The notes below the pieces were generated by a model. That model searched no databases, was not told where the DNA came from, and was given only the letters and a program-made list of their open reading frames with translations. From a virus (lineage: Duplodnaviria; Heunggongvirae; Uroviricota; Caudoviricetes): DNA of 64,000 bases. Each line of letters opens with the position of its first letter. Positions within the stretch are counted from its first letter, which is position 1. The stretch spans positions 18,526-82,525 of the IMG/VR virus record IMGVR_UViG_3300015615_001160; one strand, given 5' to 3'. Made by a program: the position numbers and the translations under genes. Shown piece after piece: positions 26,181 to 58,856 of this stretch.

Positions 26181-26759
26181 TTAACCCAGGAAGTGCGCCC
26201 AGTCGGCTACGCCGTGCTGATTGCGGATGAACGCCGACGCGGGTTTCTCGCGCGGAGCGACCGGGTGCTGGTGCAGGCGCAGCCCGGCCTCGTGCGGCAG
26301 GCGGTCCGCTTTGGCGGAATTCACCTCGCGGTGCGCAAGCACGCAGTTCTCCCAGTTCGTCTTGCCGCCGCGGGAGCGGGGCACGACTTGGTCGATGTTG
26401 CCCTCCTTCGGCGAAAGCTTGCGGCCAGTGTATTGGCACACGCCGCCGTCGCGCTCCCAGATGCCGCGCATCCCAAAGCGCGGGCGGCGCATCGGCACGC
26501 GGGCGTAGTTCATCGCGATGACGACCGTCGGCACGCGCACTGGGCCGCGTGCGGTGTTTACTGCGTAGTCGCACTCCCGCACCGGCAGCGTGAGCCACGC
26601 ACTCCATTTCGTCGGCACAAACGCACCCTCGGAAATATCGAGCGCCGTGGCGGCGTCGGACGCCATCATGCAAAACGCCTCCGCGGGCGTCTTCACGTGG
26701 ATCGCCTGCCAATGCCGATTCAGCACCAGCACGGTCGTTTTGTTGAGGATGTTATTCAT
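26181..26759 (-). CDS. HNH endonuclease domain protein
   Basis: 192 aa. HNH core DQVVPRSRGGKTNWENCVLAHREVNSAKADR. It is the last gene of the minus-strand RtcB block and starts with MNN at 26757-26759. Confidence 0.7.
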   Translation of the reverse strand: MNNILNKTTVLVLNRHWQAIHVKTPAEAFCMMASDAATALDISEGAFVPTKWSAWLTLPVRECDYAVNTARGPVRVPTVVIAMNYARVPMRRPRFGMRGIWERDGGVCQYTGRKLSPKEGNIDQVVPRSRGGKTNWENCVLAHREVNSAKADRLPHEAGLRLHQHPVAPREKPASAFIRNQHGVADWAHFLG

Positions 26760-26870
26760 CGGAAAAAAGTTTAGCTAACAACTGATAGTCATAAGGTAGC
26801 GTGACCGCTTGGTGAATGGCAGCGCGCAGCGCTGCCATTCACCAATCACCGATCACACTTTACAAGTGTC

Positions 26871-28274
26871 TTAGTCTTCCGCGCGGTCACCCGCCGGACA
26901 CATCTTCACGAGTTTCGGGTCGAAGCGGCCGAGCACATCGACGAGGTCCGTCTGCGCCGACATCACTTGCGCGATGTCCTTGTAGACGCCCGGCACTTCG
27001 TCGAGGCCGGCGGAGAGCAGTTCCACGCCAGCGGCGGCGAGTTGTTTCTTCACCGCGCTCCACGTGAACGACTGCAATGCCTTGCTGCGGCTCATCACCC
27101 GGCCCGCGCCGTGCGACGCGCTGTGCAGCGACTCGGGCGAGCCCTTGCCGCGTACGACATAGCCCGGCGATGCCATGGAACCCGGGATAACACCCAGCAC
27201 TCCGGCGCCCGCCGGCGTCGCGCCCTTGCGGTGCACGACGACCTCGCGCTCTTCCCCATTCACGACATGCGTTTCTTTCCACGCGAAGTTGTGATGGTTT
27301 TCGATGTCGAGGATCACATGCCCACCGAGCTTTTTCGCGATGTGCCGGTGGATGAGTGCGTGGTTCGCCGCTGCGTAACGGCCCATCAAGTTCATCGCGG
27401 CCCAGTATTCCTGGCCGTCGGCGTCGTCGAGCGAGAGCCACGCGAGGTGCTTGAGTTCCTTCGGCAGGTGCTCGTGGCGGGCCATCGCGCGCTTGCTGTA
27501 GACTTCGCACACCTTCGCGCCGGTTCCGCGCGAGCCCGAGTGCGAGAGTAGCGCGAGATATTCTCCCGGCTCGAGGCCCAGGGTCTGTGCCTGCTCCGCA
27601 TCGACGGTGAACGCACCGAACTCGACGAAGTGGTTGCCACTTCCGCTCGTGCCGAGCTGCGACCACGCCTTGTCGCGCAGTTGCTTCGTCACGGGCGCCA
27701 CGGACCAGTCTTCGTCCATCACGTCGTGCTCGCGGCGCTGCTTGAACTGGCAGCCCATACCGAACCGCGTCTCGTCTTCGAGGATGTTCGCGAGCCGATC
27801 GCGCTGGCCGGCGAGGGTGCTCGCCTTGCGGTCATACACCGTCAGCTTCATGCGGCACGCGATGTCCACGCCGACGGCGTAAGGAATCACCGCGTTGTCG
27901 GTCGCGAGCACACCGCCGATCGGCAGGCCGTAGCCCACGTGCGCATCCGGCATCAACGCGCCCGCCACCGCGACCGGCAGCGCACACGCATTCGCCATTT
28001 GCTTCACCGCCTCGGCTTCGAGCCCTTCGCCCCACTGACGCCACGGCGCGAGTTCTGCGCGCGGCGTAAACGGCGGGCGATAGATCGCCCGCGCCAGCGG
28101 TGCCCGCAGCTCGTCGGCAAAGAAAGCCGTTGGATTGGCGACGATGTTGAAGATTTCGCCCTCCAGTAACGCGCCGTCATTTCCCCGCGCGATGAAGTTC
28201 TGGATGAACTCGTGCGCAACTTGGATCGGCCCGCCCATCGGCACGCCGAGGCGGATGAGGTCTTTGGTGTTCAT
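26871..28274 (-). CDS. rtcB: RtcB RNA ligase (joins 3'-phosphate/2',3'-cyclic phosphate to 5'-OH)
   Basis: RtcB family signatures MPDAHVGYGLPIGG, GSGNHF, SASHGAGR. Start chosen at MNTKDLIRLGVPMGG (ATG 28272-28274). An in-frame upstream ATG at 28307 would add 11 aa. Confidence 0.9.
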   Translation of the reverse strand: MNTKDLIRLGVPMGGPIQVAHEFIQNFIARGNDGALLEGEIFNIVANPTAFFADELRAPLARAIYRPPFTPRAELAPWRQWGEGLEAEAVKQMANACALPVAVAGALMPDAHVGYGLPIGGVLATDNAVIPYAVGVDIACRMKLTVYDRKASTLAGQRDRLANILEDETRFGMGCQFKQRREHDVMDEDWSVAPVTKQLRDKAWSQLGTSGSGNHFVEFGAFTVDAEQAQTLGLEPGEYLALLSHSGSRGTGAKVCEVYSKRAMARHEHLPKELKHLAWLSLDDADGQEYWAAMNLMGRYAAANHALIHRHIAKKLGGHVILDIENHHNFAWKETHVVNGEEREVVVHRKGATPAGAGVLGVIPGSMASPGYVVRGKGSPESLHSASHGAGRVMSRSKALQSFTWSAVKKQLAAAGVELLSAGLDEVPGVYKDIAQVMSAQTDLVDVLGRFDPKLVKMCPAGDRAED

Positions 28275-28408
28275 AGTGAGTTGGTTTGAAAATGTGCGTC
28301 GCCGCACGCGGACACAATGCGAGTGCGCAGCGGTGTTTGTTCTTTTTGTCGGAAAGTCTGCAGCCGGGAAGGGTTCATGCCCTCCCCGGCTGTACCACTA
28401 CTAGTTCC

Positions 28409-29218
28409 TCAATCGAGGAAGGCGACGTTCGCCATGGTGCGGGTGGTGTTCTCGGTGTTCATCCAGACTTGGTGCCAGCCATGCAGTGTGATGGTGGCGT
28501 GGTCCGGGTGCCGTATCGTGCCGCGCGCATAGACTTGCGCGTCACGTGTTCGGCGTTGCCAGCCCCAGTGGTTGGCTTCTGGCTGCTCCACGATGAGCTG
28601 CTTGTAGTGCTGGACTGTGATCCCATTCGGGAAACGCGCGCAGACATACACTTGCTCACCGCCAGTGCGGAACAGCTCTGCCACCCAGTGCGGCTTGCCA
28701 CCACCACCGCGGCTGATCGGCTCGTGACGATGCACGAGCTTCCCATCCACGTGCAGGCCTGGCACTGGCACGAAGAACCATTCACCCTGACGGATGAAGG
28801 CTCGGTTGTGACGCCGCACGCGTTGCCCGGGGTTCAAGCGAGCCTGATCCGCGGCTTCGCGAACCTTCGGCGGCAGCAGGGCGAGCTTCGCCTGCAATAC
28901 CGTCGAGGCACCGCCTGGCACCGCGGCCACGAACCATTCCCGCTCATCGTGACCACAGAGGAAGCGATCATTCGCTGCCGGTGTCTTGACGAGCAGAAGG
29001 AGGTGTCGGTCGTGTCGGTCGCACTGGAGCACATCCGCATCGAGGTGCGTTTCGCGCTGGGCGCTCAACTGCATCTCGAAAACCTGACCGCGTTTATCGG
29101 CGGCCAGGTCGATGGCATAGTCCGCACGTCGGCGGCTCCACGGTAGATTTTCTGGACGAACGATCCGGAACCGCGCGCCCATGTGGGCGAACTGGTTCGC
29201 GATCGATTTAGAGTTCAT
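28409..29218 (-). CDS. Hypothetical protein (about 270 aa) between rtcB and the nucleotidyltransferase gene
   Basis: Start chosen at MNSKSIANQF (29218). The longer ORF running to 29434 would overrun the tRNA-Lys-like gene and a hairpin. Confidence 0.5.
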   Translation of the reverse strand: MNSKSIANQFAHMGARFRIVRPENLPWSRRRADYAIDLAADKRGQVFEMQLSAQRETHLDADVLQCDRHDRHLLLLVKTPAANDRFLCGHDEREWFVAAVPGGASTVLQAKLALLPPKVREAADQARLNPGQRVRRHNRAFIRQGEWFFVPVPGLHVDGKLVHRHEPISRGGGGKPHWVAELFRTGGEQVYVCARFPNGITVQHYKQLIVEQPEANHWGWQRRTRDAQVYARGTIRHPDHATITLHGWHQVWMNTENTTRTMANVAFLD

Positions 29219-29230
29219 ATCTTGGAATTG

Positions 29231-29252
29231 GGTCGCGCGGCTTGGCGCGACC
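29231..29252. promoter_or_regulatory. Perfect 8-bp stem hairpin just upstream of the hypothetical gene start
   Basis: ggtcgcgc ggcttg gcgcgacc, followed on the plus strand by gattgcgttttctttcc. Confidence 0.3.
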
Positions 29253-29367
29253 GATTGCGTTTTCTTTCCGGGCCTTGCGAGCCCGAGACGACTTGATGCG
29301 GTAGTGGACAGACATTGGTTTTGATGGTGGTGGGTTGGTGAATTCGTGGCGTTGAAGACCACGATGT

Positions 29368-29439
29368 GAAAAAGTGAACCCGTAGGGACTTGCACCCTCC
29401 TCAGCCGCTTAAGAGGCGGCGGCTTCGCTCTCAAAGCTT
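29368..29439 (-). tRNA. tRNA-Lys(CTT)-like gene; non-canonical, no encoded CCA
   Basis: Minus-strand sense gaacccg aa gctt..aagc c gccgc ctcttaa gcggc .. gaggg tgcaagt cccta cgggttc a. Perfect 7-bp acceptor and 5-bp anticodon stem; loop cT-CTT-aa. T-loop is TGCAAGT (G55) and position 8 is A. A paralog with a TTT anticodon lies at 32518-32589. Confidence 0.55.
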
Positions 29440-29472
29440 CGGGTTCTTAAATTAAAGCAGTGGGGAGCGATG

Positions 29473-29513
29473 GCCCCGCCGGTGTTGCCCGATTGCAGTC
29501 ACCGGCGGGGCGT
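29473..29513 (-). terminator. Strong hairpin immediately after the nucleotidyltransferase stop codon (minus strand)
   Basis: 12-bp perfect GC-rich stem gccccgccggtg / caccggcggggc. It begins 8 nt past the TGA at 29521-29523. Confidence 0.5.
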
Positions 29514-29520
29514 CCTCCTC

Positions 29521-30297
29521 TCAAGCGGAGAGCGCGTAACGGCGGAAGAAGCTATTCAGCTCCTCGACGCTGCCTGCGGCGTCGTCGCGCTCGTTGAGCG
29601 CTTCGAGTCTTGGCAGTTCGGCCTCGATGAAGCGCGAGAGCACTTCGACCGGCGGCGCGACCGCCAGTTCGTCGCCGGCCTGTTTGCGCGCGATGAGTTC
29701 ATCGAGCGCGGCGCGCACGTCGGATTCTTCGAGTACACTCTCGACGAGTTGTGCGAAGAGCATGGGCACCTGGCCGAGTTGGCGCTCGATCCAGCGGCAC
29801 GCTAGCAGCGGTCGGAAGACGTAGAGATACTTCTTCAGGCTCACCATCTCGCGCCCGCGGAGGTAGTCGCGCCAGTTGCCGAAGGCCATGTGCAGGTAGT
29901 GGGCGAAGCAGCGCCGCTGCGAATAGAATTCCTCCGCGAGCGCGCCAAACTCGGCACTGAAGACCGGCTCGTGGCGATACACGATCGGTGACTTCAGCCA
30001 CTCGAGCAGCGGCGGGTTGCTCTTGCGGAGCAGGCGCAACGCCTTGCGCAGCTCCCAACCGCTGACGTCGAGATCGTCGGCGAGTGGGCGCTCGATCACG
30101 TCGCGCCGATCCTCGACCGAGAGATACCAGTCGCGCCGATGCACGTAGAGAAAGCGCACGTCGTAGTCGCTGTCGCGCGAGGCAAAGCCCCACGCACGGC
30201 TGCCGCTCTCGCACGCGAAGAGCACGCGGACGTTTCGCTCGGCCTCGACCTGAGCGAGCGCGTCGCGGACGCGCTGGAAAACTTCGTTCCCATTCAT
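29521..30297 (-). CDS. Predicted nucleotidyltransferase (Pol-beta/MNT superfamily) in the RtcB neighbourhood
   Basis: 258 aa. GS...D.D motif in VLFACESGSRAWGFASRDSDYDVRFLYV. A helical C-terminal domain follows. Confidence 0.65.
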   Translation of the reverse strand: MNGNEVFQRVRDALAQVEAERNVRVLFACESGSRAWGFASRDSDYDVRFLYVHRRDWYLSVEDRRDVIERPLADDLDVSGWELRKALRLLRKSNPPLLEWLKSPIVYRHEPVFSAEFGALAEEFYSQRRCFAHYLHMAFGNWRDYLRGREMVSLKKYLYVFRPLLACRWIERQLGQVPMLFAQLVESVLEESDVRAALDELIARKQAGDELAVAPPVEVLSRFIEAELPRLEALNERDDAAGSVEELNSFFRRYALSA

Positions 30298-30372
30298 GGG
30301 AACCTCCTTTCTGTTTGAGATGTGATTGGCGACGGGCGTCGCCGATGTTGTTGATCGCCTTGGCGTGCCTGC

Positions 30373-30900
30373 TTAGATGGGGAGCCGCACTTTTGCGTAG
30401 AGCAGGCCGTCGATGAATTCATCATCGCGGAAGTAGTATGCGCGCAATCGGCCTTCGTGCGTGTAGCCGGCCTTCTCCAGCACCCGAGCGGAAGCCGGGT
30501 TGCGTGCGAAGACATGGGCGTGCAACCGCACGAGGTTTAGCTCTCGGAAGGCCCATTCCGTCATCGCGTCGAGCGCTTCCGTGGCGATCCCGCGGCCCCA
30601 GAGTGTCTCGCCGAGCCAGTAGCCGATTTCCGCGGTATGCTGGCGCGCGGTTACACCGCTGGGGTTCACTTCGACGCCGATGCCACCGACGATCTGGTCG
30701 TCGATGGCGATGCCGAAGTTGGTTTCCGGATCCTGTTTAGTGGCAAAGTCGATCCACCATTCCGCATTCTGCAGCGAATAGGGATGGGGGATGTGTAACA
30801 TATTGCGCGCAACGCTGTAGCTGCCGATGTGCGTGGAAATCGACTCGGCGTCGCCGGGACGAAAGGAACGAATGGTGGATTTGGAGAGGGTGAGTTGCAT
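30373..30900 (-). CDS. GNAT family N-acetyltransferase (RimJ/RimL-like)
   Basis: 175 aa. IGYWLGETLWGRGIATEALDAMTEWAF ... ARNPASARVLEKAGYTHEGRLR matches Acetyltransf_3-type. Confidence 0.75.
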   Translation of the reverse strand: MQLTLSKSTIRSFRPGDAESISTHIGSYSVARNMLHIPHPYSLQNAEWWIDFATKQDPETNFGIAIDDQIVGGIGVEVNPSGVTARQHTAEIGYWLGETLWGRGIATEALDAMTEWAFRELNLVRLHAHVFARNPASARVLEKAGYTHEGRLRAYYFRDDEFIDGLLYAKVRLPI

Positions 30901-30930
30901 GGGGTGGATGGTGAAAGTTTCAGCCCGAAA

Positions 30931-30958
30931 CCCCGGTGGAGACAGAGATCCACCGGGG
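30931..30958. repeat. Palindromic (REP-like) element, copy 1
   Basis: ccccggtgga gacagaga tccaccgggg: a 10-bp perfect stem. It is near-identical in design to copy 2 at 31394. Confidence 0.5.
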
Positions 30959-31393
30959 TTGCGAGGTTACCGGATTGCAGCGCGAACCCGGTGTGCAAGT
31001 TCGGTCGGGCATGAAGTTCGGCGCCGGTGGAAGGGGTGATTTTTGGATTAGTACGATGGTTCGCGTGTTGATGGACGGATCATCAGCGTATCTCTCAGCA
31101 GGGCTCCGGGTCCGGCTCGCTCGCTCAGCAGAATCCGAAGCGGCACGCCCGCCAGCGATGTGCTGTGGGGCAACCGGTCGAACGGAGTTCCTTTGCGAGT
31201 ATGTCTCGCGATAGGCTGAGATCTCAGTCGAACAGCTCCGAGGAGGAAAACCCCGATGAGGATGACGCCATGACCCAGAATGGCTGGGTCGGGCATGGTG
31301 GGTGGGTGGGTTGGAAAATGAGCAAGCCCGCCCGATTGATCTCGGAAGGGATCGAGCGCGGAGAGCCGTGTGGGCGTTCGCGCGGAGGATCAC

Positions 31394-31458
31394 CCCGGCG
31401 GAGCGAGTTCTCCGCCGGGGCTTGTTCCTCCCTCGCAATTTTTTGTTTCACGTTTCGT
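31394..31458 (+). terminator. Palindromic element copy 2 plus a T-tract; a plus-strand rho-independent terminator-like structure
   Basis: ccccggcgga gcgagttc tccgccgggg followed by cttgttcctccctcgcaattttttgtttc. Confidence 0.4.
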
Positions 31459-32245
31459 CCGTCTCCGTTGCGGTTGGCTTGACGCCGCGCGTGTGGAGAG
31501 CGGGGAGCAGGGTCGACAGGTCGTTCATCACGAACGTCTGGCCTGCGGTGGACGCTTCGAGCGTTTGCAGGAAGCGGAGGGTGGCGAGTGCGGGCTGGCC
31601 TTCGATGAGGCGCGCGGCATTGGCGAGGTTGCGCAGCGCGGCGGATTCGGCGCGGGCGCGTTCGAGCGCGGCCTGGCCTTCCTGCTTCGCCTTGAGCACT
31701 TCGCTGAAGGCCTTGCGCAGTTCGCCCGGCAGCATCACATCGCGCACGTCGGCCGCGTGGACTTGCACGCCGACAGCTTCCGCTTGTGGCGCGATGAGTT
31801 CGCGGAGTTGCGCGCCGATGGCGACACGCTGCGTGAGCAGGGCTTCCATCGGCACTCCGGCAACGACGGTGCGAACGGCGGCCTGCGTGGCGTTGTAAAT
31901 GTGGGCCGCGTAGTTGTCCGCAGCCTGCACGCTCTTCGCCGCATCCACGATCTGCGTGGTGAGCACGACGCTGAGCTTCACGCCGACGTTGTCGGCGCTG
32001 AGCACTTCCTGGCCCGCGACCTGGAGGAGCGTCTTGCGGATGTCCACGGCGACGAGGCGGTAGTTGCGGCCCCAGCGGATGTGACGGCCCGCTGGCAGCG
32101 TGCTCACGAGCTGGCCTTCGTGGAAGAGCAGGCCCGCGTAGCCTTCGGTGACGATGAACTCGTGGTGGTAGCGAGTGCACGCAATATTAGTCACGAGCAA
32201 ACCGGCGCCAAGGAGAGCGACGATGAGAATATCTTGGGTGGTCAT
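31448..32245 (-). CDS. Band-7 / SPFH (stomatin-prohibitin) domain membrane protein
   Basis: 265 aa with an N-terminal TM segment (ILIVALLGAGLLVTNIA) followed by an SPFH domain. Band-7 proteins are recurrent partners of RtcB-type RNA repair operons. Confidence 0.8.
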   Translation of the reverse strand: MTTQDILIVALLGAGLLVTNIACTRYHHEFIVTEGYAGLLFHEGQLVSTLPAGRHIRWGRNYRLVAVDIRKTLLQVAGQEVLSADNVGVKLSVVLTTQIVDAAKSVQAADNYAAHIYNATQAAVRTVVAGVPMEALLTQRVAIGAQLRELIAPQAEAVGVQVHAADVRDVMLPGELRKAFSEVLKAKQEGQAALERARAESAALRNLANAARLIEGQPALATLRFLQTLEASTAGQTFVMNDLSTLLPALHTRGVKPTATETDET

Positions 32246-32391: not shown

Positions 32392-32420
32392 GTGGATGGA
32401 TGGGATTCGAACCCAGTCGG
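32392..32420 (-). other. tRNA 3'-end-like fragment with a canonical T-arm (GGGTTCGAATCCC) and no matching 5' acceptor strand
   Basis: Minus sense ...gactgggttcgaatcccatccatcca. No complementary acceptor strand was found within 120 nt. It may be an att-type remnant or a decayed unit. Confidence 0.3.
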
Positions 32421-32517
32421 CGGTGAGCCGATGACCAGCCGCCGGATGGTCGATGTGCAGGACCAGTCGCGGCGATGCCGCCTGGCTGCGGGTGTATTTT
32501 TCCGGCGGAAGAGGAAA

Positions 32518-33103: not shown

Positions 33104-33990
33104 TGGGACTGCGGGTTGAGACTAAACCCACAGGCATCATCTCCTTCGCGCGGATTATTCGAGGCTTGCGGCCTCTATTCCCGGCTTGTCCTCGGCGACT
33201 GACCCGAAAGTCACATCGACGAGCGATGACACGATTGCCTTTGTTAACGAGGTGGCATTTCCCCGTAGATGGTCAGCTACTCTACCTCCGTCCTACCGCC
33301 AGCCTTGCGGGCTGTGAGAGGCGCGACCCTCGACGTGCGGACTCGGGTAAACTTCGCGGGCCTTGCGGGCCGTGGAAGTCTCCATTGCCTTGCGGCTGAA
33401 GAATTAAATCGTTTTCGCTGACGACCGGCGGCGTCTTTGCATTTTTTTGGCGATGCAGGATTTCTCCTGCGACCTCCGGCTTTCGAAGCCGACGCTCTGT
33501 TCTGAGCTAATCGATAACCCACCACGATGTGCGCCGCCTGTCGTGCCGAATCCTTTTGGGACTCGATATGCGACACACCGTGTGACTTTCCCTTGCGGGT
33601 ACTCATCGTGTCCTGGCGATCGCGTCCGCCTCCTTGCCTTTTGGGCTCGGCAGCGTCCGCTTCCGCGCGACATGCAGCAGGCGCCTCGTTTGCGGCTTGG
33701 CGTCTACTGCTCCCCTTGTTCCCTCAACACTGGACGTTTTGCTGGAAAGGCACGCCTTGCGAAGGGGCGTTCCTGCTCCTACGGAGTTACCCTCGGAACA
33801 GTTTCCCTTTCCCGTCGTCATGTATACCTCGGCCGCATTTGACTGCGACAAGGCTATGGGACCTGGGTTTGCTTGAATGTCCTCGAGTGAACGAGGCGCG
33901 GGCGTGTGGGCCGTTTCCGCTTTTGGCCGTCTCGCGACGGTTTATCTTTCATCCCTTGCGGGACCTGGAGATCAAGCTCCCCAGTTTTTA
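33104..33990 (-). ncRNA. About 880-bp non-coding segment inside the array with a recurring CCTTGCGGG motif; candidate large structured RNA and/or decayed tRNA units
   Basis: No convincing ORF and no regular spacers. CCTTGCGG(G) occurs at 33304, 33361, 33385, 33590, 33764 and 33953. At least one tRNA-like unit (33448-33516) is embedded. Confidence 0.3.
33448..33516 (-). tRNA. tRNA-like unit with a good D-arm (gctc/gagc) and a T-loop-like anticodon loop ttCGAaa
   Basis: The acceptor is imperfect and the assignment is uncertain. Confidence 0.25.
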
Positions 33991-34018: not shown

Positions 34019-34095
34019 TGGTCCCGGCGGCAGGAGTTGCACCCGCACTGGCTCCGGTCTGAGCGGAGTGTCTCTGCTTGTTGGACTACGCCGGG
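34019..34095 (-). tRNA. tRNA-like, Leu anticodon CAG, class I
   Basis: Acceptor cccggcg/cgccggg perfect + A + CCA; anticodon stem ctccg/cggag with loop cT-CAG-ac; T-arm gcggg TGCAACT cctgc. Confidence 0.5.
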
Positions 34096-34104
34096 AAAAA
34101 GGAG

Positions 34105-34180
34105 TGGTGCTCTCGGCAGGAGTTTCGCCCGCAACCTCCGCGTTCGAAGCGCGGCACTCTAGACATTGAGCTACGAGAGC
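34105..34180 (-). tRNA. tRNA-Arg(TCG)-like
   Basis: Acceptor gctctcg/cgagagc; D-stem gctc/gagt; anticodon stem ccgcg/cgcgg with loop cT-TCG-aa; CCA encoded. Confidence 0.5.
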
Positions 34181-34191
34181 ATGGATGGAAA

Positions 34192-34268
34192 TGGCTGCCC
34201 CGGATGGATTCGCGCCATCAACCTCCCGGTTCAGAGCCGGGCGCTCTCGCTGTTTGAGCTACAGGGCA
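34192..34268 (-). tRNA. tRNA-Gln(CTG)-like
   Basis: D-stem gctc/gagc; anticodon stem cccgg/ccggg with loop cT-CTG-aa; T-arm gatgg CGCGAAT ccatc; disc G + CCA. Confidence 0.55.
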
Positions 34269-34273
34269 ACATG

Positions 34274-34345
34274 ATCCGCCAACCGGAGTTGCACCGGTCT
34301 CTCGCCGATACCAGCGGCGTGCGTCGCTCACAACGCTTTGGCGGA
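34274..34345 (-). tRNA. tRNA-Thr(GGT)-like
   Basis: Acceptor tccgcca/tggcgga perfect; D-stem gcgt/acgc; anticodon stem cgccg/cggcg with loop cT-GGT-at; T-arm accgg TGCAACT ccggt. Confidence 0.5.
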
Positions 34346-34355
34346 GTTTGAAATG

Positions 34356-34429
34356 ATCAGGCACCTCGGTGCTGCCCCGAGTATCTCGCCGATCCGAACG
34401 GCGCGGATTGCTGTCTTCCTCGTGCCTGA
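34356..34429 (-). tRNA. tRNA-Pro(CGG)-like
   Basis: Acceptor tcaggca/tgcctga perfect; anticodon stem cgccg/cggcg with loop tT-CGG-at; T-arm ctcgg GGCAGCA ccgag. Confidence 0.5.
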
Positions 34430-34431
34430 AT

Positions 34432-34572
34432 GAAATAACTGGAGCCACGGGGAATGCTCGCGCGGCAGCGCTTCGACACGAGTCGTGGAGCGCTGGCTGC
34501 ATAGCGGCAGGAGCCGCAATCGCACCCCGATCTGCGCAATGCCAATGCGTCGTCTGGCTATTGGACTATGGC
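34432..34572 (-). ncRNA. About 140-nt structured repeat. It has a nested-hairpin 5' half and a tRNA-like 3' half (possible Ala GGC loop). It is a paralog of the element at 35940-36080
   Basis: The ggagcgctggctgcat and caatcgcacc blocks are shared with the 35940 copy. There is a nested hairpin cagcgct...cgac acga gtcg...agcgctg. Confidence 0.3.
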
Positions 34573-34579
34573 CCCGACA

Positions 34580-34655
34580 TGGACGCGCGCCCCGGACTCG
34601 CACCGGGTAATTCGGTTTTGCAGACCGATGGTTCGACGGCTTTGCCTTGCGCGCG
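34580..34655 (-). tRNA. tRNA-Cys(GCA)-like
   Basis: Acceptor cgcgcgc/gcgcgcg; anticodon stem tcggt/accga with loop cT-GCA-aa; T-arm cccgg TGCGAGT ccggg; T + CCA. Confidence 0.5.
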
Positions 34656-34667
34656 TTTTTTTGTGAT

Positions 34668-34743
34668 GGGGGTGACCGTCGGGATTCGCACCCGAATCTT
34701 CTGGTTCACGGCCAGAAACTCTGACTCTTGAGCTACGGCCACA
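34668..34743 (-). tRNA. tRNA-His(GTG)-like
   Basis: Acceptor gtggccg/cggtcac (one G.U); anticodon stem tctgg/ccaga with loop cc-GTG-aa (C33); T-arm tcggg TGCGAAT cccga. Confidence 0.4.
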
Positions 34744-34766
34744 GCTTCTTCCTGTGTTGTGGAAAG

Positions 34767-34843
34767 TGGATCCTCCGGCCGGCGCTGCCCCGGCATGGTC
34801 TTCTTTACGAGAGAAGTGCATTGCTGGCCTCTGCCACGGAGGA
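34767..34843 (-). tRNA. tRNA-Thr(CGT)-like
   Basis: Acceptor tcctccg/cggagga perfect; anticodon stem cttct/agaag with loop cT-CGT-aa; T-arm gccgg GGCAGCG ccggc; T + CCA. Confidence 0.5.
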
Positions 34844-34853
34844 ACGGGATGAA

Positions 34854-34930
34854 TGGTGCTCCCGCGAGGACTTGCACCTCGAGCTTCCGCCTTCGCAGGG
34901 CAGCGTGCAGGACTCTTACACTTCGGGAGC
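34854..34930 (-). tRNA. tRNA-Arg(GCG)-like
   Basis: Acceptor gctcccg/cgggagc; anticodon stem ctgcc/ggcgg with loop cT-GCG-aa; T-arm cgagg TGCAAGT cctcg; A + CCA. Confidence 0.5.
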
Positions 34931-34939
34931 TAATGAAAA

Positions 34940-35014
34940 TGGTGCGCCATGCCGGTGCCGCCCCGGCGCTGTGTCTTTGGAAGAGACGCGTGCTCGCTGT
35001 TACACCAATGACGC
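34940..35014 (-). tRNA. tRNA-Gly(TCC)-like
   Basis: Acceptor gcgtcat/atggcgc; anticodon stem cgtct/agaca with loop cT-TCC-aa; T-arm gccgg GGCGGCA ccggc; A + CCA. Confidence 0.5.
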
Positions 35015-35024
35015 TTTGGAAAAA

Positions 35025-35099
35025 TGGTGGCTGCTTCCGGTATCGCGCCGGACTCCCCTCGGCTTCAGCGAGGTGCTAATCTATCTCAGCTACACAGCC
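35025..35099 (-). tRNA. tRNA-Phe(GAA)-like
   Basis: D-stem gctg/tagc; anticodon stem cctcg/cgagg with loop cT-GAA-gc; T-arm tccgg CGCGATA ccgga; A + CCA. Confidence 0.5.
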
Positions 35100-35153
35100 G
35101 TTCGACAGGCTCACGGCCTGCGGCCCTTCGACGAAGTTTCGTCTTTGGGCAAA
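35100..35153. other. Short non-tRNA spacer with two small hairpins (ggcc tgc ggcc; gacga agtt tcgtc followed by tttggg)
   Basis: It does not fold as a cloverleaf. It may be an intra-array processing or terminator-like element. Confidence 0.3.
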
Positions 35154-35154
35154 G

Positions 35155-35228
35155 TGGTCCCTCCGCGCGGTATCGCGCCGCGGTCTCTCGCTTATCGGGC
35201 GAGGGCTCTGCTTTTGAGCTACGGAGGG
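35155..35228 (-). tRNA. tRNA-Ile(GAT)-like
   Basis: Acceptor ccctccg/cggaggg perfect; D-arm gctc aaaagca gagc; anticodon stem ctcgc/gcgag with loop cc-GAT-aa (C33); T-arm cgcgg CGCGATA ccgcg; A + CCA. Confidence 0.5.
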
Positions 35229-35237
35229 TTTTGGAAA

Positions 35238-35311
35238 TGGTCGCTCGAGGTGGTAACGCTCCACCGTTTGTCGGATGTCGGCCGGCCGTTCTGCTTTTGA
35301 ACTATCGAGCG
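35238..35311 (-). tRNA. tRNA-Val(GAC)-like
   Basis: Acceptor cgctcga/tcgagcg + A + CCA; D-arm gttc aaaagca gaac; loop cc-GAC-at; T-arm ggtgg AGCGTTA ccacc. Paralog of the next unit, with compensatory stem changes. Confidence 0.5.
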
Positions 35312-35322
35312 ATGCGAAAGAA

Positions 35323-35396
35323 TGGTCGCCCGACGTGGTAACGCTCCACGGTCTTCCGGATGTGAGCCGGCCGTTCTCCTTTTGAACTATCAGGCG
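35323..35396 (-). tRNA. tRNA-Val(CAC)-like
   Basis: Acceptor cgcctga/tcgggcg; T-stem cgtgg/ccacg (compensatory relative to ggtgg/ccacc in the previous unit); loop cT-CAC-at. Confidence 0.5.
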
Positions 35397-35409
35397 AAAA
35401 TGAAAATGA

Positions 35410-35481
35410 TACCCGCGCCCGGTAATGCTCCGGGGTTTTCTGATGAAGAATCAGCCGTGCTGACGATTGCACCATGCGGGT
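35410..35481 (-). tRNA. tRNA-like unit, anticodon region ambiguous (possibly CTT)
   Basis: D-stem gtgc/gcac perfect; T-arm cccgg AGCATTA ccggg. The anticodon stem and loop can be drawn two ways (ttCTTca with a 4-bp stem, or a 5-nt loop). Confidence 0.3.
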
Positions 35482-35489
35482 TTTTGAAA

Positions 35490-35564
35490 TGGCTCCTCCC
35501 CTTGGCATCGCACCAAGCTCACACCGCTTAACAGGCGGGCCGCACACTCTGTGCGTTGAGAGGA
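35490..35564 (-). tRNA. tRNA-Asn(GTT)-like
   Basis: Acceptor tcctctc/gggagga; D-stem cgca/tgcg; loop cT-GTT-aa; T-arm cttgg TGCGATG ccaag; G + CCA. Confidence 0.45.
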
Positions 35565-35575
35565 ATGTGTCGTTT

Positions 35576-35650
35576 TACTCCCGGCAGGAGTTGCACCTGC
35601 GTAGTTCCATTTAGAAGATGGATGCCTATGTACTGCTCGGCCACGGGAGC
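35576..35650 (-). tRNA. tRNA-Arg(TCT)-like
   Basis: Anticodon stem tccat/atgga perfect with loop cT-TCT-aa; T-arm gcagg TGCAACT cctgc; no CCA. Confidence 0.45.
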
Positions 35651-35661
35651 GTGGATAGAAA

Positions 35662-35736
35662 GGGTCGCGCGCCTCGGTGCTGCCCCGAGTGTCTCCTCGT
35701 CCCAAGCGAGGCGGGTTGCTGTCTCCCTCGCGCGCG
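35662..35736 (-). tRNA. tRNA-Pro(TGG)-like
   Basis: Acceptor cgcgcgc/gcgcgcg; anticodon stem cctcg/cgagg with loop cT-TGG-ga; T-arm ctcgg GGCAGCA ccgag. Confidence 0.45.
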
Positions 35737-35759
35737 TCACGGTGTCGTGTCGTGTGAAA

Positions 35760-35836
35760 TGGCGGCCTGTGCGGGCTTTGCTCCCGCGCCCTTCCGCTCG
35801 ACAGGCGGCTGCTCTTCGTGGCTGAGCTAACAGGCC
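35760..35836 (-). tRNA. tRNA-Asp(GTC)-like
   Basis: Acceptor ggcctgt/acaggcc perfect; D-stem gctc/gagc; loop cT-GTC-ga; T-arm gcggg AGCAAAG cccgc; G + CCA. Confidence 0.5.
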
Positions 35837-35846
35837 ATGGTGAAAT

Positions 35847-35935
35847 TGGTGGGTTGTGTCGGTAATGCTCCGACGCTGGTCCGGCTGGACATCCGCTTTA
35901 CAGGCGGCTCGCGATCTTTACGTGACTAACAACCC
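35847..35935 (-). tRNA. tRNA-Tyr(GTA)-like, class II
   Basis: Acceptor gggttgt/acaaccc perfect + A + CCA; loop cT-GTA-aa; variable-arm hairpin gtcc agcc ggac; T-arm gtcgg AGCATTA ccgac. Confidence 0.5.
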
Positions 35936-35939
35936 GAAA

Positions 35940-36160
35940 TGGTTGCGGGACGTGGAATGCGTGGCGCGGTAGCGCCGTTGCTGGACGACGCGGAGCGCTG
36001 GCTGCATGGACGCCGGAGCGTCAATCGCACCACGATACGAGGGCGTATGAAACTCTCTTGGTTTTGCCGCTCCGGCGGCTATGCGAAGTGCGCTCCGCGT
36101 CCATGGTGTGAACGTGCTTGCGCGCGAGTGCATTCAACCTTCCCGCGATTGAATGGTGAA
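35940..36160 (-). ncRNA. Structured repeat(s) not resolved as tRNA; includes the paralog of the 34432 element
   Basis: Shares ggagcgctggctgcat...caatcgcacc with 34432-34572. Contains hairpins ggcgc ggta gcgcc and gcgctccg/cggagcgc. Confidence 0.3.
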
Positions 36161-36161
36161 A

Positions 36162-36236
36162 TGGTGGACCGCCACGGCTTTGCACCGTGCTCTTCCGCTT
36201 GCGAGGCGAATGACCTCCTGAATGATCGAGCGGCCC
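36162..36236 (-). tRNA. tRNA-Ala(CGC)-like
   Basis: Acceptor gggccgc/gcggtcc; anticodon stem ttcgc/gcgga with loop cT-CGC-aa; T-arm cacgg TGCAAAG ccgtg; A + CCA. Confidence 0.45.
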
Positions 36237-36244
36237 AGGAAAAT

Positions 36245-36321
36245 TGGTAGCGGGGGCCGGATTTGAACCGGCGAATTGACGGCTTATGAGGCCGTTGCCT
36301 TAACCACTTGGCGACCCCGCA
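36245..36321 (-). tRNA. tRNA-Met(CAT); the most canonical unit (GG in the D-loop, TTCAAAT T-loop), with a 1:72 mismatch (initiator-like)
   Basis: gcggggtcgccaaGTGGTTAAggca acggc cT-CAT-aa gccgt ... gccgg TTCAAAT ccggc ccccgct A CCA. Confidence 0.6.
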
Positions 36322-36333
36322 GTCTGTGGAAAG

Positions 36334-36408
36334 TGGCACAGCGTCTCGGTGCTGCCCCGAGCCCGCGGAGTTTTGGAGACTCTGCTGCGCGAGCTGGCGC
36401 CCGCTGTG
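36334..36408 (-). tRNA. tRNA-like unit (acceptor and T-arm clear; body unresolved)
   Basis: Acceptor cacagcg/cgctgtg; T-arm ctcgg GGCAGCA ccgag. Confidence 0.3.
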
Positions 36409-36426
36409 TTTCACGATTGGAAAAAT

Positions 36427-36500
36427 TGGTGCGGTCAGCCGGACTTGCACCGGCATCCTCTGATTGGCACTCAGACATCCTTCTCTTGAACGATGACCGC
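36427..36500 (-). tRNA. tRNA-Gly(GCC)-like
   Basis: Acceptor gcggtca/tgaccgc perfect + A + CCA; anticodon stem tctga/tcaga with loop gT-GCC-aa; T-arm gccgg TGCAAGT ccggc. Confidence 0.5.
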
Positions 36501-36502
36501 AT

Positions 36503-36544
36503 AGGAGCGGCGCGGGCTGCGATTCTGTGCGCACCCGCGCCGCT
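36503..36544. promoter_or_regulatory. 12-bp perfect-stem hairpin at the upstream (right) end of the array
   Basis: gagcggcgcggg ...17 nt... cccgcgccgctc. Confidence 0.3.
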
Positions 36545-37621
36545 CTTCTGACAAAAAAGAACAAACACCGCTGCCTCCCTTCCGACATAGTCGGGGACGC
36601 ACCCGCAGGATTGTTTCACGGCGGATCTTTCGGTGTTTCAGGCACACCTCCCGGTGCACGGATATGATAGTTATCCATGCGAAGCCTCTGGACTGGAAAA
36701 GCCAGGGGCGAGAAATCAGACAATGCAGACCTGCGAACGAGTGATAGCTATCGACTCGCTTGACAGTTTCACCATGAGCTGCCACCATTCGGTGGTTACT
36801 AACTCACGATCGTCTCGGCTAGGGACTTATCTGGATTGGTGACCGATTTCACCCCGTCGTCAGTTGCCGCTGGCGGCGGGGTTTTTATCGCCCACGTGGT
36901 GGTTTGAAATGTGGTGTTCGTTCGGTGGGGTTTTGTTGTGGGGTTAGGAGGCGGCAAGGCCGCGGCTGGAGAAAGTGGGAAAAACCCTCGGAAAATGAGA
37001 AACCCTGCTGGGCTTTTCGGCCGAGCAGGGTTCTCGAAATCTACGGATCTGGATGAGATCGTGAGTTACCTGCTGGCCTCCTTGGTAATGTTTTCTTCGG
37101 CGAAACTCGGTCGCGAATTGGTTGCCTGGGCATCGGACGTATAGCCGACCCAACCGTTGCCACGGAGCATACCCGAGCAACGCAACCTGTCGGTCGCCTG
37201 CGTATGTATGGGTGATGTTCTTAGTGGCTTCATTGGTAGTGAATGTGACGTTTGATAGACCCGTAAAATGAATGGGTCAATAGCAATTTTTAAAAAAGTT
37301 TAAGGGGAGATATGTTAGTGATGGATAACAAATGTGGAAATGCTCCGGCGCTGGAGAGCGTGAGGATATGAATTTTCATGGCCCAAGACGAGTGCAGTCT
37401 GCGGTGTGTCTTATGCGACTTAATTCGGCGGGATATTTGCGGGAATGGATGATAGTTCGAGATCGAACTTTAATCTGTCTGGGCGGCGAGAATCGAGTGT
37501 CTGTCGCAGGCGCGCGAGTGGCCTGGCTCTGGCAGCCGGATATGCGGCGACCGCTGGGCGTGTCGATGGCCACTACAGTTTCGTGGTTTGAGCACACGGA
37601 TGAAGCCTCCGTGTGTATCCC

Positions 37622-44310: not shown

Positions 44311-44961
44311 ATGAGCAGCTCGAAAACGCCTGTCGTCCTCCTAGTCAGAGTATCCACAGTTCGGCAAGAGACCTCACGCCAGATTTCGGAGTTGGAGGCT
44401 TACGCTGCCAGCAAGGGCTACGAGGTCGTCGAACTGTGCAAGGAGACGATCTCGGGCCGGGCTGACGAGGACGACCGCCACGGGTTGAAGCGAGCCGAAG
44501 CACTCGCCCGCGCTGGAGCGATCAAGAAAGTCCTCGTCCACGAGGTTTCCCGTTTGGCCCGGCGGAACAGCATCACACATCGGTTCGTTGAGGTGTTGGA
44601 GGAATGCGGAGTTTCGCTCTACTGGCACGCGCAGGGGATTGAAACCCTCCTGCCGAGCGGCAAGCGAAACCCAGCAGCGGGCATCATGCTCGCGCTGCTC
44701 GCCGAAATGGCGCGCGGGGAGGTTGAGACGCTGCGGGAGCGGATCAAGTCCGGGTTGGCCGAAGCTCGGCGCAAAGGGGTGAGGCTGGGCAGGCCGGAGG
44801 GCACATCGCTCGACCGGGACATCTTCCTTCAAAAGCACAAGGACATCGCACGATGGCTCAAGGCTGGTCAGTCGATCCGCAACGCTGCCAAGATCACGGG
44901 GAAGGGTATCTCGACGGTGCAGCGCGTGAAGACGGCGCTCGCCGAGCATGCATGCGCATAG
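44311..44961 (+). CDS. Small serine recombinase (resolvase/invertase family)
   Basis: N-terminal VVLLVRVSTVRQ with the catalytic Ser, and a C-terminal HTH. Confidence 0.8.
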   Translation: MSSSKTPVVLLVRVSTVRQETSRQISELEAYAASKGYEVVELCKETISGRADEDDRHGLKRAEALARAGAIKKVLVHEVSRLARRNSITHRFVEVLEECGVSLYWHAQGIETLLPSGKRNPAAGIMLALLAEMARGEVETLRERIKSGLAEARRKGVRLGRPEGTSLDRDIFLQKHKDIARWLKAGQSIRNAAKITGKGISTVQRVKTALAEHACA

Positions 44962-54900: not shown

Positions 54901-55240
54901 CCTCGTCTATGTCGCGCAGGACGGTAGCGTCGTCGTCAACCACACTGACGCCAAGCGCCTCCTCGATCTTGCCCGCGCCGCTTGCAAAGACCGCAGCGAA
55001 CCAATCACGGAGGTCTATCAGCCGTTCAATCTCGCCACGAAGGACGGACGCCGCATGGACGCATATTCCGCGCTGTTGCAAAAGGGCATCCAGTCCATGA
55101 TCGCGCTGAAGGAGGAGAAGGACATTGATAGTCTCTTCAGCGGCGGCCCCGGCGGCAAGACCACCGCGTTGTTGAACACGATCACCGGCCTTGGCGACTT
55201 CGAGTTGATCGCCTTCCTCGTGGTGCAGCCCCGCGCATGA
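51911..55240 (+). CDS. SNF2/RAD54-family helicase
   Basis: DSVGLGKTFTALAV (motif I), VVIDESHNFRN (motif II), LMLSATPVNNRF, LIGTDCISEGQNLQDCDYLINYDIHWNPVRIIQRFGRIDRIGS (motifs V-VI). Confidence 0.85.
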   Translation: MKQASVWFSPVWPLPMEIIDNINHLLGDSLKQTITPGAKLKIAASCFSIYAFEALKAELEKIESLHFIFTSPTFVPGDVTDKVKKEHREFHIPKLERERSLYGSEFEVRLRNELTQKAIAKECATWMRDKAVFRSNRGCAPMQQFAGVSADGKESVYLPLHGFTAVDLGYEKGNAISNFVNRMDEQPLTTTYLSLFDQIWNDPEKLEDVTAKLCEHIASVYQENSPERIYFLMLYNIFSEFLEDISADVLPNDRTGYQDSLVWKKLYNFQRDAATGVINKLETYNGCILADSVGLGKTFTALAVVKYYELRNKSVLVLCPKKLADNWLTYKGNLVTNIFAKDRFGYDVLCHTDLLRESGYSFGMALNRVNWGNYDLVVIDESHNFRNNTAFEDRETRYQRLLNQVVRQGVKTKVLMLSATPVNNRFTDLRNQLALAYEGDPENLSAKLKSKKTIDEIFRRAQTAFNAWSLLPAEQRTAAAILDALDFDFFEVLDSVTIARSRRHIQTYYDTKDIGTFPERLKPLSFHCQLTHRKDVIGFNEIFARLSMLTLAVYAPLSYVQPSRLRKYEELYDPGDEIGHGNLGQSGREKGIQALMTVNLLKRLESSVHSFRLTLQSLADNHERTLAKIAAFKKTGRDATFADVSPAFADVEPEDDDEIPDPDDAQIGSNVQINLSDMDLPRWEHELRADLAIIEALLAEMRKITPSDDAKLQHIKTTILSKLASPINLANKKVLVFTAFADTADYLYEHLAPFFLEKAGLQSGKVTGAGSPKSTLKKSYDFQSLLTLFSPRSKEKAAILPKEPGEIDLLIGTDCISEGQNLQDCDYLINYDIHWNPVRIIQRFGRIDRIGSQNRCIQLVNYWPDITLDEYINLKERVESRMVIADVTATGDDNPLDAKANDVAYRREQLRRLQEEVIELEDLKTGISITDLGLNDFRMDLVNYVKTHSDLASLPNGMHAVVPAAPERGLVPGVIFALRNRNDGVNINQQNRLHPYYLVYVAQDGSVVVNHTDAKRLLDLARAACKDRSEPITEVYQPFNLATKDGRRMDAYSALLQKGIQSMIALKEEKDIDSLFSGGPGGKTTALLNTITGLGDFELIAFLVVQPRA

Positions 55241-58853: not shown

Positions 58854-58856
58854 CCC

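Follow-up and report, generated by a model that had tools for sequence, protein, structure and literature searches.

An A18/G55 elbow variant among the tRNAs of an array linked to RNA-repair genes in the virus record IMGVR_UViG_3300015615_001160

The guanosine at position 18 and the pseudouridine at position 55, which meet at the elbow of the molecule, are treated as invariant in cytoplasmic transfer RNAs (tRNAs), and tRNA finders as well as several enzymes rely on both. In this study, we describe a minus-strand array of tRNA genes in which nearly all members carry A18 and G55 instead. The array is located in a 64,000-nt stretch of the IMG/VR record IMGVR_UViG_3300015615_001160 (Caudoviricetes; positions 18,526 to 82,525 of the record), which is designated the window and to which all coordinates refer unless another record is named. 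A previous inspection of positions 34,019 to 36,500, made from the letters alone and termed here the sequence-only reading, had drawn attention to the unusual loops of these units.

The array extends from 36500 to 32518 and, together with an outlier gene at 29446-29375, comprises about 33 co-oriented tRNA genes with 31 different anticodons, all 20 amino acids being represented within 4 kb of tRNA-coding sequence (Table 1). Read on the minus strand, the units are of similar length, and most end with NCCA followed by a T-rich spacer. ARAGORN called 14 minus-strand tRNA genes between 29374 and 36500, and the Rfam tRNA model RF00005 gave 15 matches at the gathering score (29) and 20 at E<=10, with scores of 38-60 bits. 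Candidates were located with a script by a 7-bp acceptor stem together with a T stem of 5 bp and a loop of 7 nt; the cloverleaf parse applied next returned 31 units, and a covariance model trained on 30 parsed units (R1) returned 32, with no further convincing match elsewhere in the window. The gene for tRNA-Ser(GCU) and a Met-like gene, the latter split by insertions, were parsed manually and added to the model calls. A plus-strand tRNA-Arg(tcg) called by ARAGORN at 34175-34250 was discarded as an antisense artefact over the minus-strand Gln and Arg units. ARAGORN and the Rfam gathering threshold miss about half of the units, and since standard annotation overlooks this share of the genes, the tRNA content of phages and genomic islands is probably under-counted. 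The units show the cloverleaf of RF00005 (7-bp acceptor stem, 3-4-bp D stem, 5-bp anticodon stem, and 5-bp T stem, with compensatory changes), and the array has the dimensions of what has been termed an L-array, i.e., at least 20 co-oriented genes with operon-like spacing that are supernumerary to the housekeeping tRNAs.

G55 was found in 29 of the 31 parsed units, the exceptions being tRNA-Met(CAT) (36321-36248) and a tRNA-like insert within the GOLLD RNA described below. The cloverleaf parse reproduced the T-loops quoted in the sequence-only reading (TGCAAGT, TGCGAGT, AGCGTTA, CGCGATA, GGCAGCA, and AGCATTA) and added TGCAACT, TGCGAAT, CGCGAAT, and GGCGGCA; it likewise returned tRNA-Met(CAT) as the sole unit with TTCAAAT and GG in the D loop, as well as the exchanged nucleotides 54 and 58 reported for some units (A54/U58 in Val-CAC, Val-GAC, Tyr, and the unit beginning at 35481). 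The frame of the T-loop is preserved, with a G53:C61 pair, a purine at position 57, and a length of 7 nt. In the D loops (e.g., AAAAGCA, AAACAGCGA, and AGATAGAT), GG is absent and AG is present in nearly all cases, which means that G19 is retained and G18 alone is lost in favour of A. The claim that these loops lack G18G19 therefore stands for G18 and falls for G19, which pairs with C56. Of the universal elbow set of RF00005 (G18, G19, U54, U55, C56, and A58), G19 and C56 are kept. It is extremely unlikely that canonical GG and TΨC elements were simply mis-registered, as the Rfam tRNA alignments themselves place G at the position of U55 (e.g., GGUGCAAGUCC compared with the consensus GGUUCgAaUCC) and contain no GG, and as an independent model and an independent script arrive at the same register.

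The covariation of the elbow nucleotides was analysed in 908 unique units from the window, its relatives among the Verrucomicrobiota, and viral contigs. Position 19 is split over two columns in the model-based alignment, and 19:56 was counted with a register-free script and a permutation control. Units with GC at positions 55-56 (n=708) have AG in the D loop in 660 cases (93%), and units with UC (n=139) have GG in 137. The rarer combinations were GA (AU in 17 of 21), GG (AC in 6 of 10), UA (GU in all 7), UG (GC in 5 of 6), UU (GA in all 5), and GU (AA in 3 of 4). G55 thus co-occurs with A18 and U55 with G18, and 19:56 is of the Watson-Crick type in all four combinations. Among the units with a base other than C56, 47 of 53 carry the complementary base at position 19, compared with 23.3 +/- 3.6 in the permutations and a maximum of 35 in 2000 trials. 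The whole table was replicated on metagenome loci drawn independently. The exchange can also be followed between orthologues with an identical acceptor stem: the tRNA-Leu(GAG) of the window combines the D loop AACGAGAAG with TGCAAAT, whereas its counterparts in the related loci L001, L007, L009, L010, L024, and L029 combine AACTGGAAG, AAACGGAAG, or AATCGGAAG (all with GG) with TTCAAAT or TTCGACT. Since the contacts of the elbow co-vary, we infer that the fold itself is kept.

Known T-loops belong to a few sequence classes, namely YGNRA with an intercalating adenosine in riboswitches, GGAAG in ribosomal RNA (rRNA), and UUCRA in tRNA. In the riboswitch and rRNA classes, positions 1 and 5 form a trans Watson-Crick/Hoogsteen pair, and the receptor adenosine is stacked between positions 4 and 5, with a hydrogen bond to the sugar edge of G2 (bioRxiv 10.1101/2022.12.26.521914). 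Of 681 unique units from viral loci, of either 55 type, 355 have TGCRA, 61 GGCAG or GGCGG, and 35 CGCRA. The array tRNAs agree at the sequence level with the description of riboswitch and rRNA T-loops (YGNRA or GGNAG at positions 1-5 and an A supplied by the partner loop) and resemble in particular the T-loops of flavin mononucleotide (FMN) and cobalamin riboswitches and of rRNA in having UGCRA, CGCRA, and GGCAG, a purine at position 4, and the expected adenosine in the partner loop (bioRxiv 10.1101/2022.12.26.521914). They differ from these in being known from sequence alone, in the tRNA elbow context with its additional Watson-Crick pair 19:56, and in the occurrence of A54/U58 and A54/A58 versions. 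By analogy, the L-shape may be locked by a T-loop of the riboswitch/rRNA type (U/C-G-N-R-A, G-G-N-A-G, or A-G-N-R-U), in which A18 would replace G18 as the base intercalating between positions 57 and 58 and would contact G55 in the way that G18 contacts pseudouridine 55 in an ordinary tRNA. The outer G19:C56 pair, which presents the face that the ribosome, RNase P, and further elbow-binding factors recognize, is retained as an unchanged platform. The distinct elbow architecture proposed in the sequence-only reading was not borne out, as only the 18/55 contact is swapped, G19:C56 co-varies, and the T-loop remains a T-loop. The 54.58 pair occurs as U.A, C.A, G.G, A.U, and A.A, the 8.14 pair is likewise variable, and both vary in G55 as well as in U55 array tRNAs. 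As a consequence of the exchange, pseudouridine 55 is impossible with G55, 5-methyluridine 54 with a base other than U54, and 2'-O-methylguanosine 18 with a base other than G18, and the latter two restrictions apply often. The A18/G55 swap would represent a natural and statistically clean double-mutant cycle of the elbow in which the tRNA-type and the riboswitch-type T-loop lock are interchangeable. Functional tRNAs that lack the G18G19 and U54-U55 signatures are also known as tRNAPyl and animal mitochondrial type II tRNAs (PMC7609411), in which the D/T contact is lost or rebuilt, the D loops are small, 19:56 is missing, and erosion is driven by mutation. In contrast, the units of the window have loops of normal size, keep G19:C56, the co-varying pair whose loss defines such elbow-less tRNAs, and show a coordinated exchange at two sites across a full set of isoacceptors.

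Several lines of evidence indicate that these units are working tRNAs. In 149 distinct array tRNAs, 96.1% of the cells in the four helices are paired, compared with 55% in shuffled and about 40% in slid controls, and compensatory double changes are seen in 20 of 21 stem pairs. The identity elements recognized by aminoacyl-tRNA synthetases are strictly kept: G3:U70 is present in 39 of 39 G55-type tRNA-Ala and in 2 of 704 non-Ala units, Cys units have U73 (25/25), G73 is found in Asp (23/23), Asn (23/24), and Trp (7/7) units, and Pro units have A73 (49/49) and C1:G72 (47/49). The discriminator rules also hold for His and Gln, and CCA is encoded in about 73% of the units, so that at the sequence level both synthetase identity and the 3' CCA are in place. 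More than 20 other genomes have orthologous arrays with the same G55/A18 deviation, and on related Chthoniobacterales contigs the housekeeping tRNAs (Pro, Glu, Lys, and initiator Met) are canonical with GG and TTCGA. It could be argued that the array is a collection of decaying tRNA pseudogenes, or a selfish repeat derived from tRNA, in which mutations have piled up to give the odd loops; the standard finders miss about half of the units, a few are visibly damaged, and L-arrays have been described as cryptic, with poor expression (PMC8421152). We consider this very improbable, because the compensatory stem changes, the covariation of 18/55 and 19/56, the kept identity elements, and the recurrence of the same loop types per isoacceptor in genomes of 34-70% GC contradict it. 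The deviation is shared, systematic, and under selection, and the previous suggestion that it does not reflect random decay was thus confirmed by covariation, identity elements, and conservation in Verrucomicrobiota, IMG/VR, and metagenomes. As judged from the sequences, it is well supported that the array units are genuine, aminoacylatable tRNAs with a conserved, re-wired elbow.

Relatives of the locus were collected with the array-adjacent RlaP protein and comprised one IMG/VR contig (L001) and 34 loci of Chthoniobacterales and Verrucomicrobiaceae, most of which contain a homologous array just upstream of RlaP. Among close relatives the array is present, absent, or reshuffled, and IMG/VR contigs contain related arrays as well. 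The cultured strain Chthoniobacter flavus Ellin428 possesses no array and a single G55-type tRNA-Lys(UUU) (L016 2615-2686, corresponding to NZ_ABVL01000011.1 154248-154319) with the D loop TGATAGCG, the T-loop TGCAAAT, and no CCA, located upstream of SPFH-RlaP-RtcB-HNH; it offers an experimental handle in a cultured strain. The breadth of the class was assessed with a pattern of three consecutive G55-type T arms, which was found in 62 IMG/VR stretches, about 45 of them real arrays, on contigs of up to 343 kb with GC contents of 0.34-0.70. The search of metagenomes for the T-loop signature, as envisaged in the sequence-only reading, yielded at least 120 stretches, and 87 of the 120 listed have at least 3 G55 units. 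In 182 loci fetched by the T-loop pattern alone, RtcB was present in 16 and HNH in 29. When the array was compared with cultured phages by BLAST, the matches, of 73-89% identity, were confined to single tRNAs, and no G55 array came to light in a cultured phage; the arrays of the six that were followed up (X1, Naboo, CcrColossus, S-CREM1, RcXuper, and Bxz1) are canonical. In the open-access literature searched, the G55/A18 class is mentioned neither in reviews on T-loops and non-canonical tRNAs nor in papers on tRNA arrays. The array as a system is already known, and the A18/G55 elbow variant within such arrays, as far as the sequences can tell, appears to be new.

Downstream of the array and on the same strand, a set of RNA-repair genes occupies 26181-32245 (Table 1), and the order array-(SPFH)-RlaP-(hypothetical)-RtcB-HNH is conserved in L001-L035 from Chthoniobacterales and Verrucomicrobiaceae. 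RlaP adds nucleotides to damaged 3' ends of tRNAs during repair (PMC12776372). An exact-sequence look-up of the neighbouring SPFH protein gave no record. RtcB, RlaP, and HNH are not obviously elbow-specific partners. L-arrays are reported to spread by horizontal gene transfer, and in Anabaena translational stress induces the array, which is regulated together with rtcB and a homing endonuclease (PMC8421152); mycobacterial tRNA arrays contain GOLLD and HNH (PMC6582537). The window array resembles that of the Anabaena plasmid pCC7120delta (PMC8421152) and the mycobacterial arrays (PMC6582537) in its dozens of packed, co-oriented, supernumerary tRNA genes, many with CCA, in its short-arm class I tRNA-Leu with the D loop AAYNGGCAG/AAYNAGCAG, in the nearby HNH homing-type endonuclease and rtcB, in the embedded GOLLD, and in its patchy, mobile or phage-like distribution of the horizontal-transfer type; an integrase and a resolvase are located nearby. 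It differs from the Anabaena array, in which all units but one are of the U55/GG type, in that its own units are nearly all A18/G55, that RlaP and RtcB are physically joined to it, and that a structured leader takes the place of repressor-bound direct repeats. The Anabaena exception is a tRNA-Ile(GAU) of the G55/A18 type (T-loop GGCAGTA, D loop AAAAGTG; L225, NC_003273.1 ~54500-54580, minus strand).

Taken together, the locus is probably best explained as the core of a horizontally transferred L-array in a genomic island of a bacterium of the order Chthoniobacterales (Verrucomicrobiota), whose real tRNAs with an A18/G55 elbow would form an alternative pool, made probably under translational stress or tRNA-directed attack and acting alongside repair by RtcB and RlaP. 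The altered elbow may render this pool independent of, or invisible to, factors that read TΨC and GG. The proposal in the sequence-only reading that such RNAs evade nucleases or modification enzymes, or depend on a dedicated partner, is plausible. Candidate selective reasons for G55 are evasion of T-loop-reading enzymes or nucleases and folding that is independent of modification. Through its linkage to RtcB, RlaP, HNH, and GOLLD, the variant bears on the current question of what leads mobile elements to carry arrays of tRNA genes.

A number of observations weigh against this explanation or against parts of it. With G55, several Leu units have C or U at position 18, the Verrucomicrobial Arg-UCG may have G there, and the three-dimensional roles of A18 and G55 are assigned by analogy only. 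A scan for a sigma-70-like promoter found none, codon coverage is partial (e.g., Ser UCN is left without a tRNA), and the present analysis identified no nuclease or enzyme that is evaded by G55. The arrays of the six cultured phages and of Anabaena are canonical U55/GG apart from the single unit described above, which means that published functional data are not directly transferable to the G55 flavour. Finally, two units are split by a mobile element, several have no CCA, and one has an aberrant anticodon loop. This last unit (35410-35481) also has a 7:66 mismatch and, if its anticodon is read as CUU, a pyrimidine at position 37, and is probably an inactivated or degenerating copy of tRNA-Glu(CUC).

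A further-reaching proposal, which we regard as rather unlikely at present, would be that the A18/G55 tRNAs constitute a distinct, widespread lineage of mobile "attack-proof" tRNAs, a full decoding set that, by exchanging the TΨC/GG signature and keeping the 19:56 platform, has become a non-substrate for nucleases, toxins, and modification enzymes that read the T-loop or elbow. In combination with RtcB and RlaP, they would enable their carrier (phage, island, or host) to translate while canonical tRNAs are destroyed, and would define a second axis of tRNA immune evasion beyond mutations of the anticodon loop, for which tRNA-directed immunity and escape by phage tRNAs are established (PMC10264068, PMC11555353, PMC13056530). 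The window units share with such defence-escaping phage tRNAs (PMC10264068, PMC11555353) the duplication of host specificities, the alteration of conserved positions, C33 and further deviations of the anticodon loop, and the prominence of tRNA-Lys, the commonest target; unlike in those tRNAs, where the escape mutations are in the anticodon loop, the change affects 18/55 of the elbow, which is not described in the papers searched, and escape is hypothetical.

Alternatively, G55/A18 could have been selected solely for stable folding without modification, so that the array would work at once in any host, or at high expression, and evasion would play no role. Unmodified riboswitch T-loops, which are overwhelmingly YGNRA with an intercalating A, the wide range of GC contents and hosts, which fits a host-independent design, and the drift of 8.14 and 54.58 among isosteric-looking alternatives in G55 and U55 array tRNAs alike are consistent with this idea. 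The equally mobile arrays of cultured phages and Anabaena, however, retain U55/GG, from which it follows that mobility alone does not require G55, and the fact that RtcB and RlaP are physically linked to the array suggests conflicts that involve RNA damage; we regard folding as the sole cause as rather unlikely. Quite improbable is a non-translational function of the units as decoys or sponges of anticodon nucleases, as substrates or cargo of GOLLD cages, or as sensors of the repair operon. The tRNA-like Y RNAs of rsr-rtcB operons serve as comparison for a sensor or decoy. In the window no Rfam match of the Y RNA/YrlA type was detected, and no TROVE domain among the neighbours scanned. The units do adjoin RtcB, RlaP, and GOLLD, for which a role as a cage that holds phage tRNAs has been proposed (PMC12286853), and the unit preserved next to the repair genes, also in C. 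flavus, is tRNA-Lys(UUU), which nucleases preferentially target (PMC13056530). On the other hand, an anticodon-nuclease decoy would not need the strictly kept acceptor and discriminator identity elements, GOLLD is missing from 9 related arrays, and all 20 amino acids are represented.

Table 1 tRNA units, neighbouring genes, and further features of the window (position 1 is the first nucleotide of the window)
Feature	Position	Strand	Characteristics	Called by or group
Integrase with DUF6900	51470-50262		upstream side of array	
Resolvase	44311-44961		upstream side of array	
Structured leader	36501-36680	-	~170 nt, upstream of first tRNA	
tRNA-Gly(GCC)	36430-36500	-	first gene of array; T-loop TGCAAGT; D loop AAGAGAA; ACCA encoded	ARAGORN, Rfam, parse, R1
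tRNA-Trp(CCA)	36337-36407	-	T-loop GGCAGCA; G73 then CCA	parse, R1
tRNA-Met(CAT)	36248-36321	-	only canonical unit; 1:72 mismatch; D loop AGTGGTTA (GG); T-loop TTCAAAT	
tRNA-Ala(CGC)	36165-36236	-	G3:U70; T-loop TGCAAAG	
Met-like tRNA(CAT)	35940-36147	-	orthologue of L001:6225-6296; split by two MITE-like copies	manual parse
~68-nt element	36063-36127	+	antisense copy in Met-like unit	
~68-nt element	35956-36026	-	T-loop of Met-like unit	
tRNA-Tyr(GTA)	35847-35935	-	long variable arm; T-loop AGCATTA (A54/U58)	
tRNA-Asp(GTC)	35763-35836	-	T-loop AGCAAAG; G73	
tRNA-Pro(TGG)	35665-35736	-	C1:G72, A73; T-loop GGCAGCA; D loop GACAGCA	
tRNA-Arg(TCT)	35576-35650	-	T-loop TGCAACT	
tRNA-Asn(GTT)	35493-35564	-	T-loop TGCGATG; G73	
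Orthologue of L001 tRNA-Glu(CTC)	35410-35481	-	anticodon loop TTCTTCA; TCA for CCA; T-loop AGCATTA (A54/U58)	
tRNA-Val(CAC)	35326-35396	-	T-loop AGCGTTA (A54/U58); D loop AAAAGGA	
tRNA-Val(GAC)	35241-35311	-	C33; T-loop AGCGTTA (A54/U58)	
tRNA-Ile(GAT)	35158-35228	-	C33; T-loop CGCGATA; D loop AAAAGCA	
tRNA-Phe(GAA)	35028-35099	-	T-loop CGCGATA; D loop AGATAGAT	
tRNA-Gly(TCC)	34943-35014	-	T-loop GGCGGCA	
tRNA-Arg(GCG)	34857-34930	-	T-loop TGCAAGT	
tRNA-Thr(CGT)	34770-34843	-	T-loop GGCAGCG	
tRNA-His(GTG)	34671-34742	-	C33, C73; T-loop TGCGAAT	
tRNA-Cys(GCA)	34583-34655	-	U73; T-loop TGCGAGT	
tRNA-Ala(GGC)	34440-34575	-	G3:U70; orthologue of L001:7656-7726; MITE-like element in T-loop	
~68-nt element	34455-34521	-	66-68 nt; T-loop of Ala(GGC)	
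tRNA-Pro(CGG)	34357-34428	-	T-loop GGCAGCA	
tRNA-Thr(GGT)	34274-34345	-	A8/U14; T-loop TGCAACT	
tRNA-Gln(CTG)	34195-34268	-	U1:A72, G73; T-loop CGCGAAT	
tRNA-Arg(TCG)	34108-34180	-	T-loop CGAAACT (G55, A56); D loop AATGTCTA, U opposite A56	
tRNA-Leu(CAG)	34022-34095	-	short class I variable arm; T-loop TGCAACT	
GOLLD RNA, conserved 3' half (RF02032)	33113-33583	-	165 bits; variable 5' half probably extends to ~34000	
tRNA-like insert in GOLLD linker	33447-33516	-	degenerate	
tRNA-Leu(TAA)	33094-33023	-	G55	distal array
tRNA-Leu(CAA)	33011-32938	-	G55	distal array
tRNA-Ser(GCT)	32931-32841	-	G55	distal array, manual parse
tRNA-Glu(TTC)	32828-32756	-	G55	distal array
tRNA-Leu(GAG)	32672-32599	-	C33, G55; D loop AACGAGAAG; T-loop TGCAAAT	distal array
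tRNA-Lys(TTT)	32589-32518	-	G55	distal array
Hairpins between tRNA-Lys(UUU) and SPFH gene	~32395-32440	-	second hairpin with canonical T-loop GGGTTCGAATCCC	
SPFH/Band-7	32245-31448	-		
GNAT	30900-30373	-		
RlaP nucleotidyltransferase (PF10127)	30297-29521	-		
tRNA-Lys(CTT)	29375-29446	-	G55 type, TGCAAGT; between RlaP and RtcB	
Hypothetical protein	29218-28409	-	269 aa	
RtcB RNA ligase	28307-26871	-		
HNH endonuclease	26759-26181	-		
Open reading frame of 8595 aa	54-25841	+	repetitive Gly/Thr/Asn/Leu-rich segments	

U33 is nearly universal in tRNA. The sequence-only reading had pointed out C33 in several units with anticodons starting with G, and these are Val-GAC, Ile-GAU, His-GUG, and Leu-GAG; nearly all units retain R37. 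Of the G34 units in the Verrucomicrobial set, 34 of 95 have C33, and C33 also occurs in Ile-GAU, Val, and Pro tRNAs of the cultured phages X1, RcXuper, CcrColossus, and Bxz1. A long variable arm is universal in bacterial tRNA-Leu; the four tRNA-Leu genes of the array have a class I variable arm of 5 nt, and the arm is equally short in the Anabaena pCC7120delta array (L225) and in the related arrays. Traits such as C33 and short-arm tRNA-Leu are shared with the canonical arrays of the cultured phages and of Anabaena. A hairpin located between tRNA-Lys(UUU) and the SPFH gene is followed by a second one with a canonical T-loop, which has a counterpart in C. flavus (L016 ~2760-2815, T-loop GGGTTCAAGCCCC). 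It has neither acceptor stem nor D arm and may represent a cis element, an attachment site, or what is left of a tRNA.

The array is split by the GOLLD RNA, which is situated between Leu(CAG) and Leu(UAA). The occurrence of GOLLD within tRNA arrays is already known (PMC6582537). GOLLD is absent from L001 and 8 other related arrays with the same elbow, which identifies it as a lineage-specific insertion, and for the same reason it was rejected as the cause of the odd tRNAs.

The insertions in the Met-like and Ala(GGC) units are copies of an element of about 68 nt, which consists of two conserved hairpins (TTGCCGCTCCGGCGGC..CATGCAG..AGCGCTCCGCG..GCGCT..CGCGCCACGCRTT). About 50 further copies were found in L002-L035, L040, L060, L197, and L216, always inserted after (A/G)TT. 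Most are located inside G55-type T-loops in either orientation, the target being approximately ATT^CGCACC, i.e., the antisense of GGTGCG^AAT; others are present in spacers, at about codon 126 of RlaP in L025-L030, and in RtcB of L005, L009, and L025. The copy in RlaP has 68 nt and causes a frameshift, and its precise removal restores the frame. The element looks like a miniature inverted-repeat transposable element (MITE) or an element of the IS200/IS605-PATE type that homes on T-arm DNA. The idea that the two long units contain T-loop introns spliced by the adjacent RtcB was dropped in favour of such an element acting at the DNA level, because it occurs in both orientations, also in spacers, and always after (A/G)TT.

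The leader upstream of the first tRNA gene is strongly conserved, with homologues in L001, L002, L004, L007, L008, L024, and L035, and has no match in Rfam. Two hairpins are enclosed by a long helix (AAACACCG/CGGTGTTT), after which comes a terminator-like U run; an upstream GGTGT may compete for the same ACACC in an antiterminator-like pairing, and an additional GC-rich hairpin with covariation is located just before tRNA-Gly. The leader could act as an attenuator or riboswitch through which the array is controlled.

With respect to the wider surroundings, a defence/restriction cluster composed of an SNF2-type helicase, a PLD-family nuclease, a DNA methylase, and a ResIII helicase-endonuclease was found at 51911-61886, on the upstream side of the array. 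On the other side, the single open reading frame of 8595 aa, which ends just before the HNH gene, probably encodes a giant surface or adhesin-like protein.

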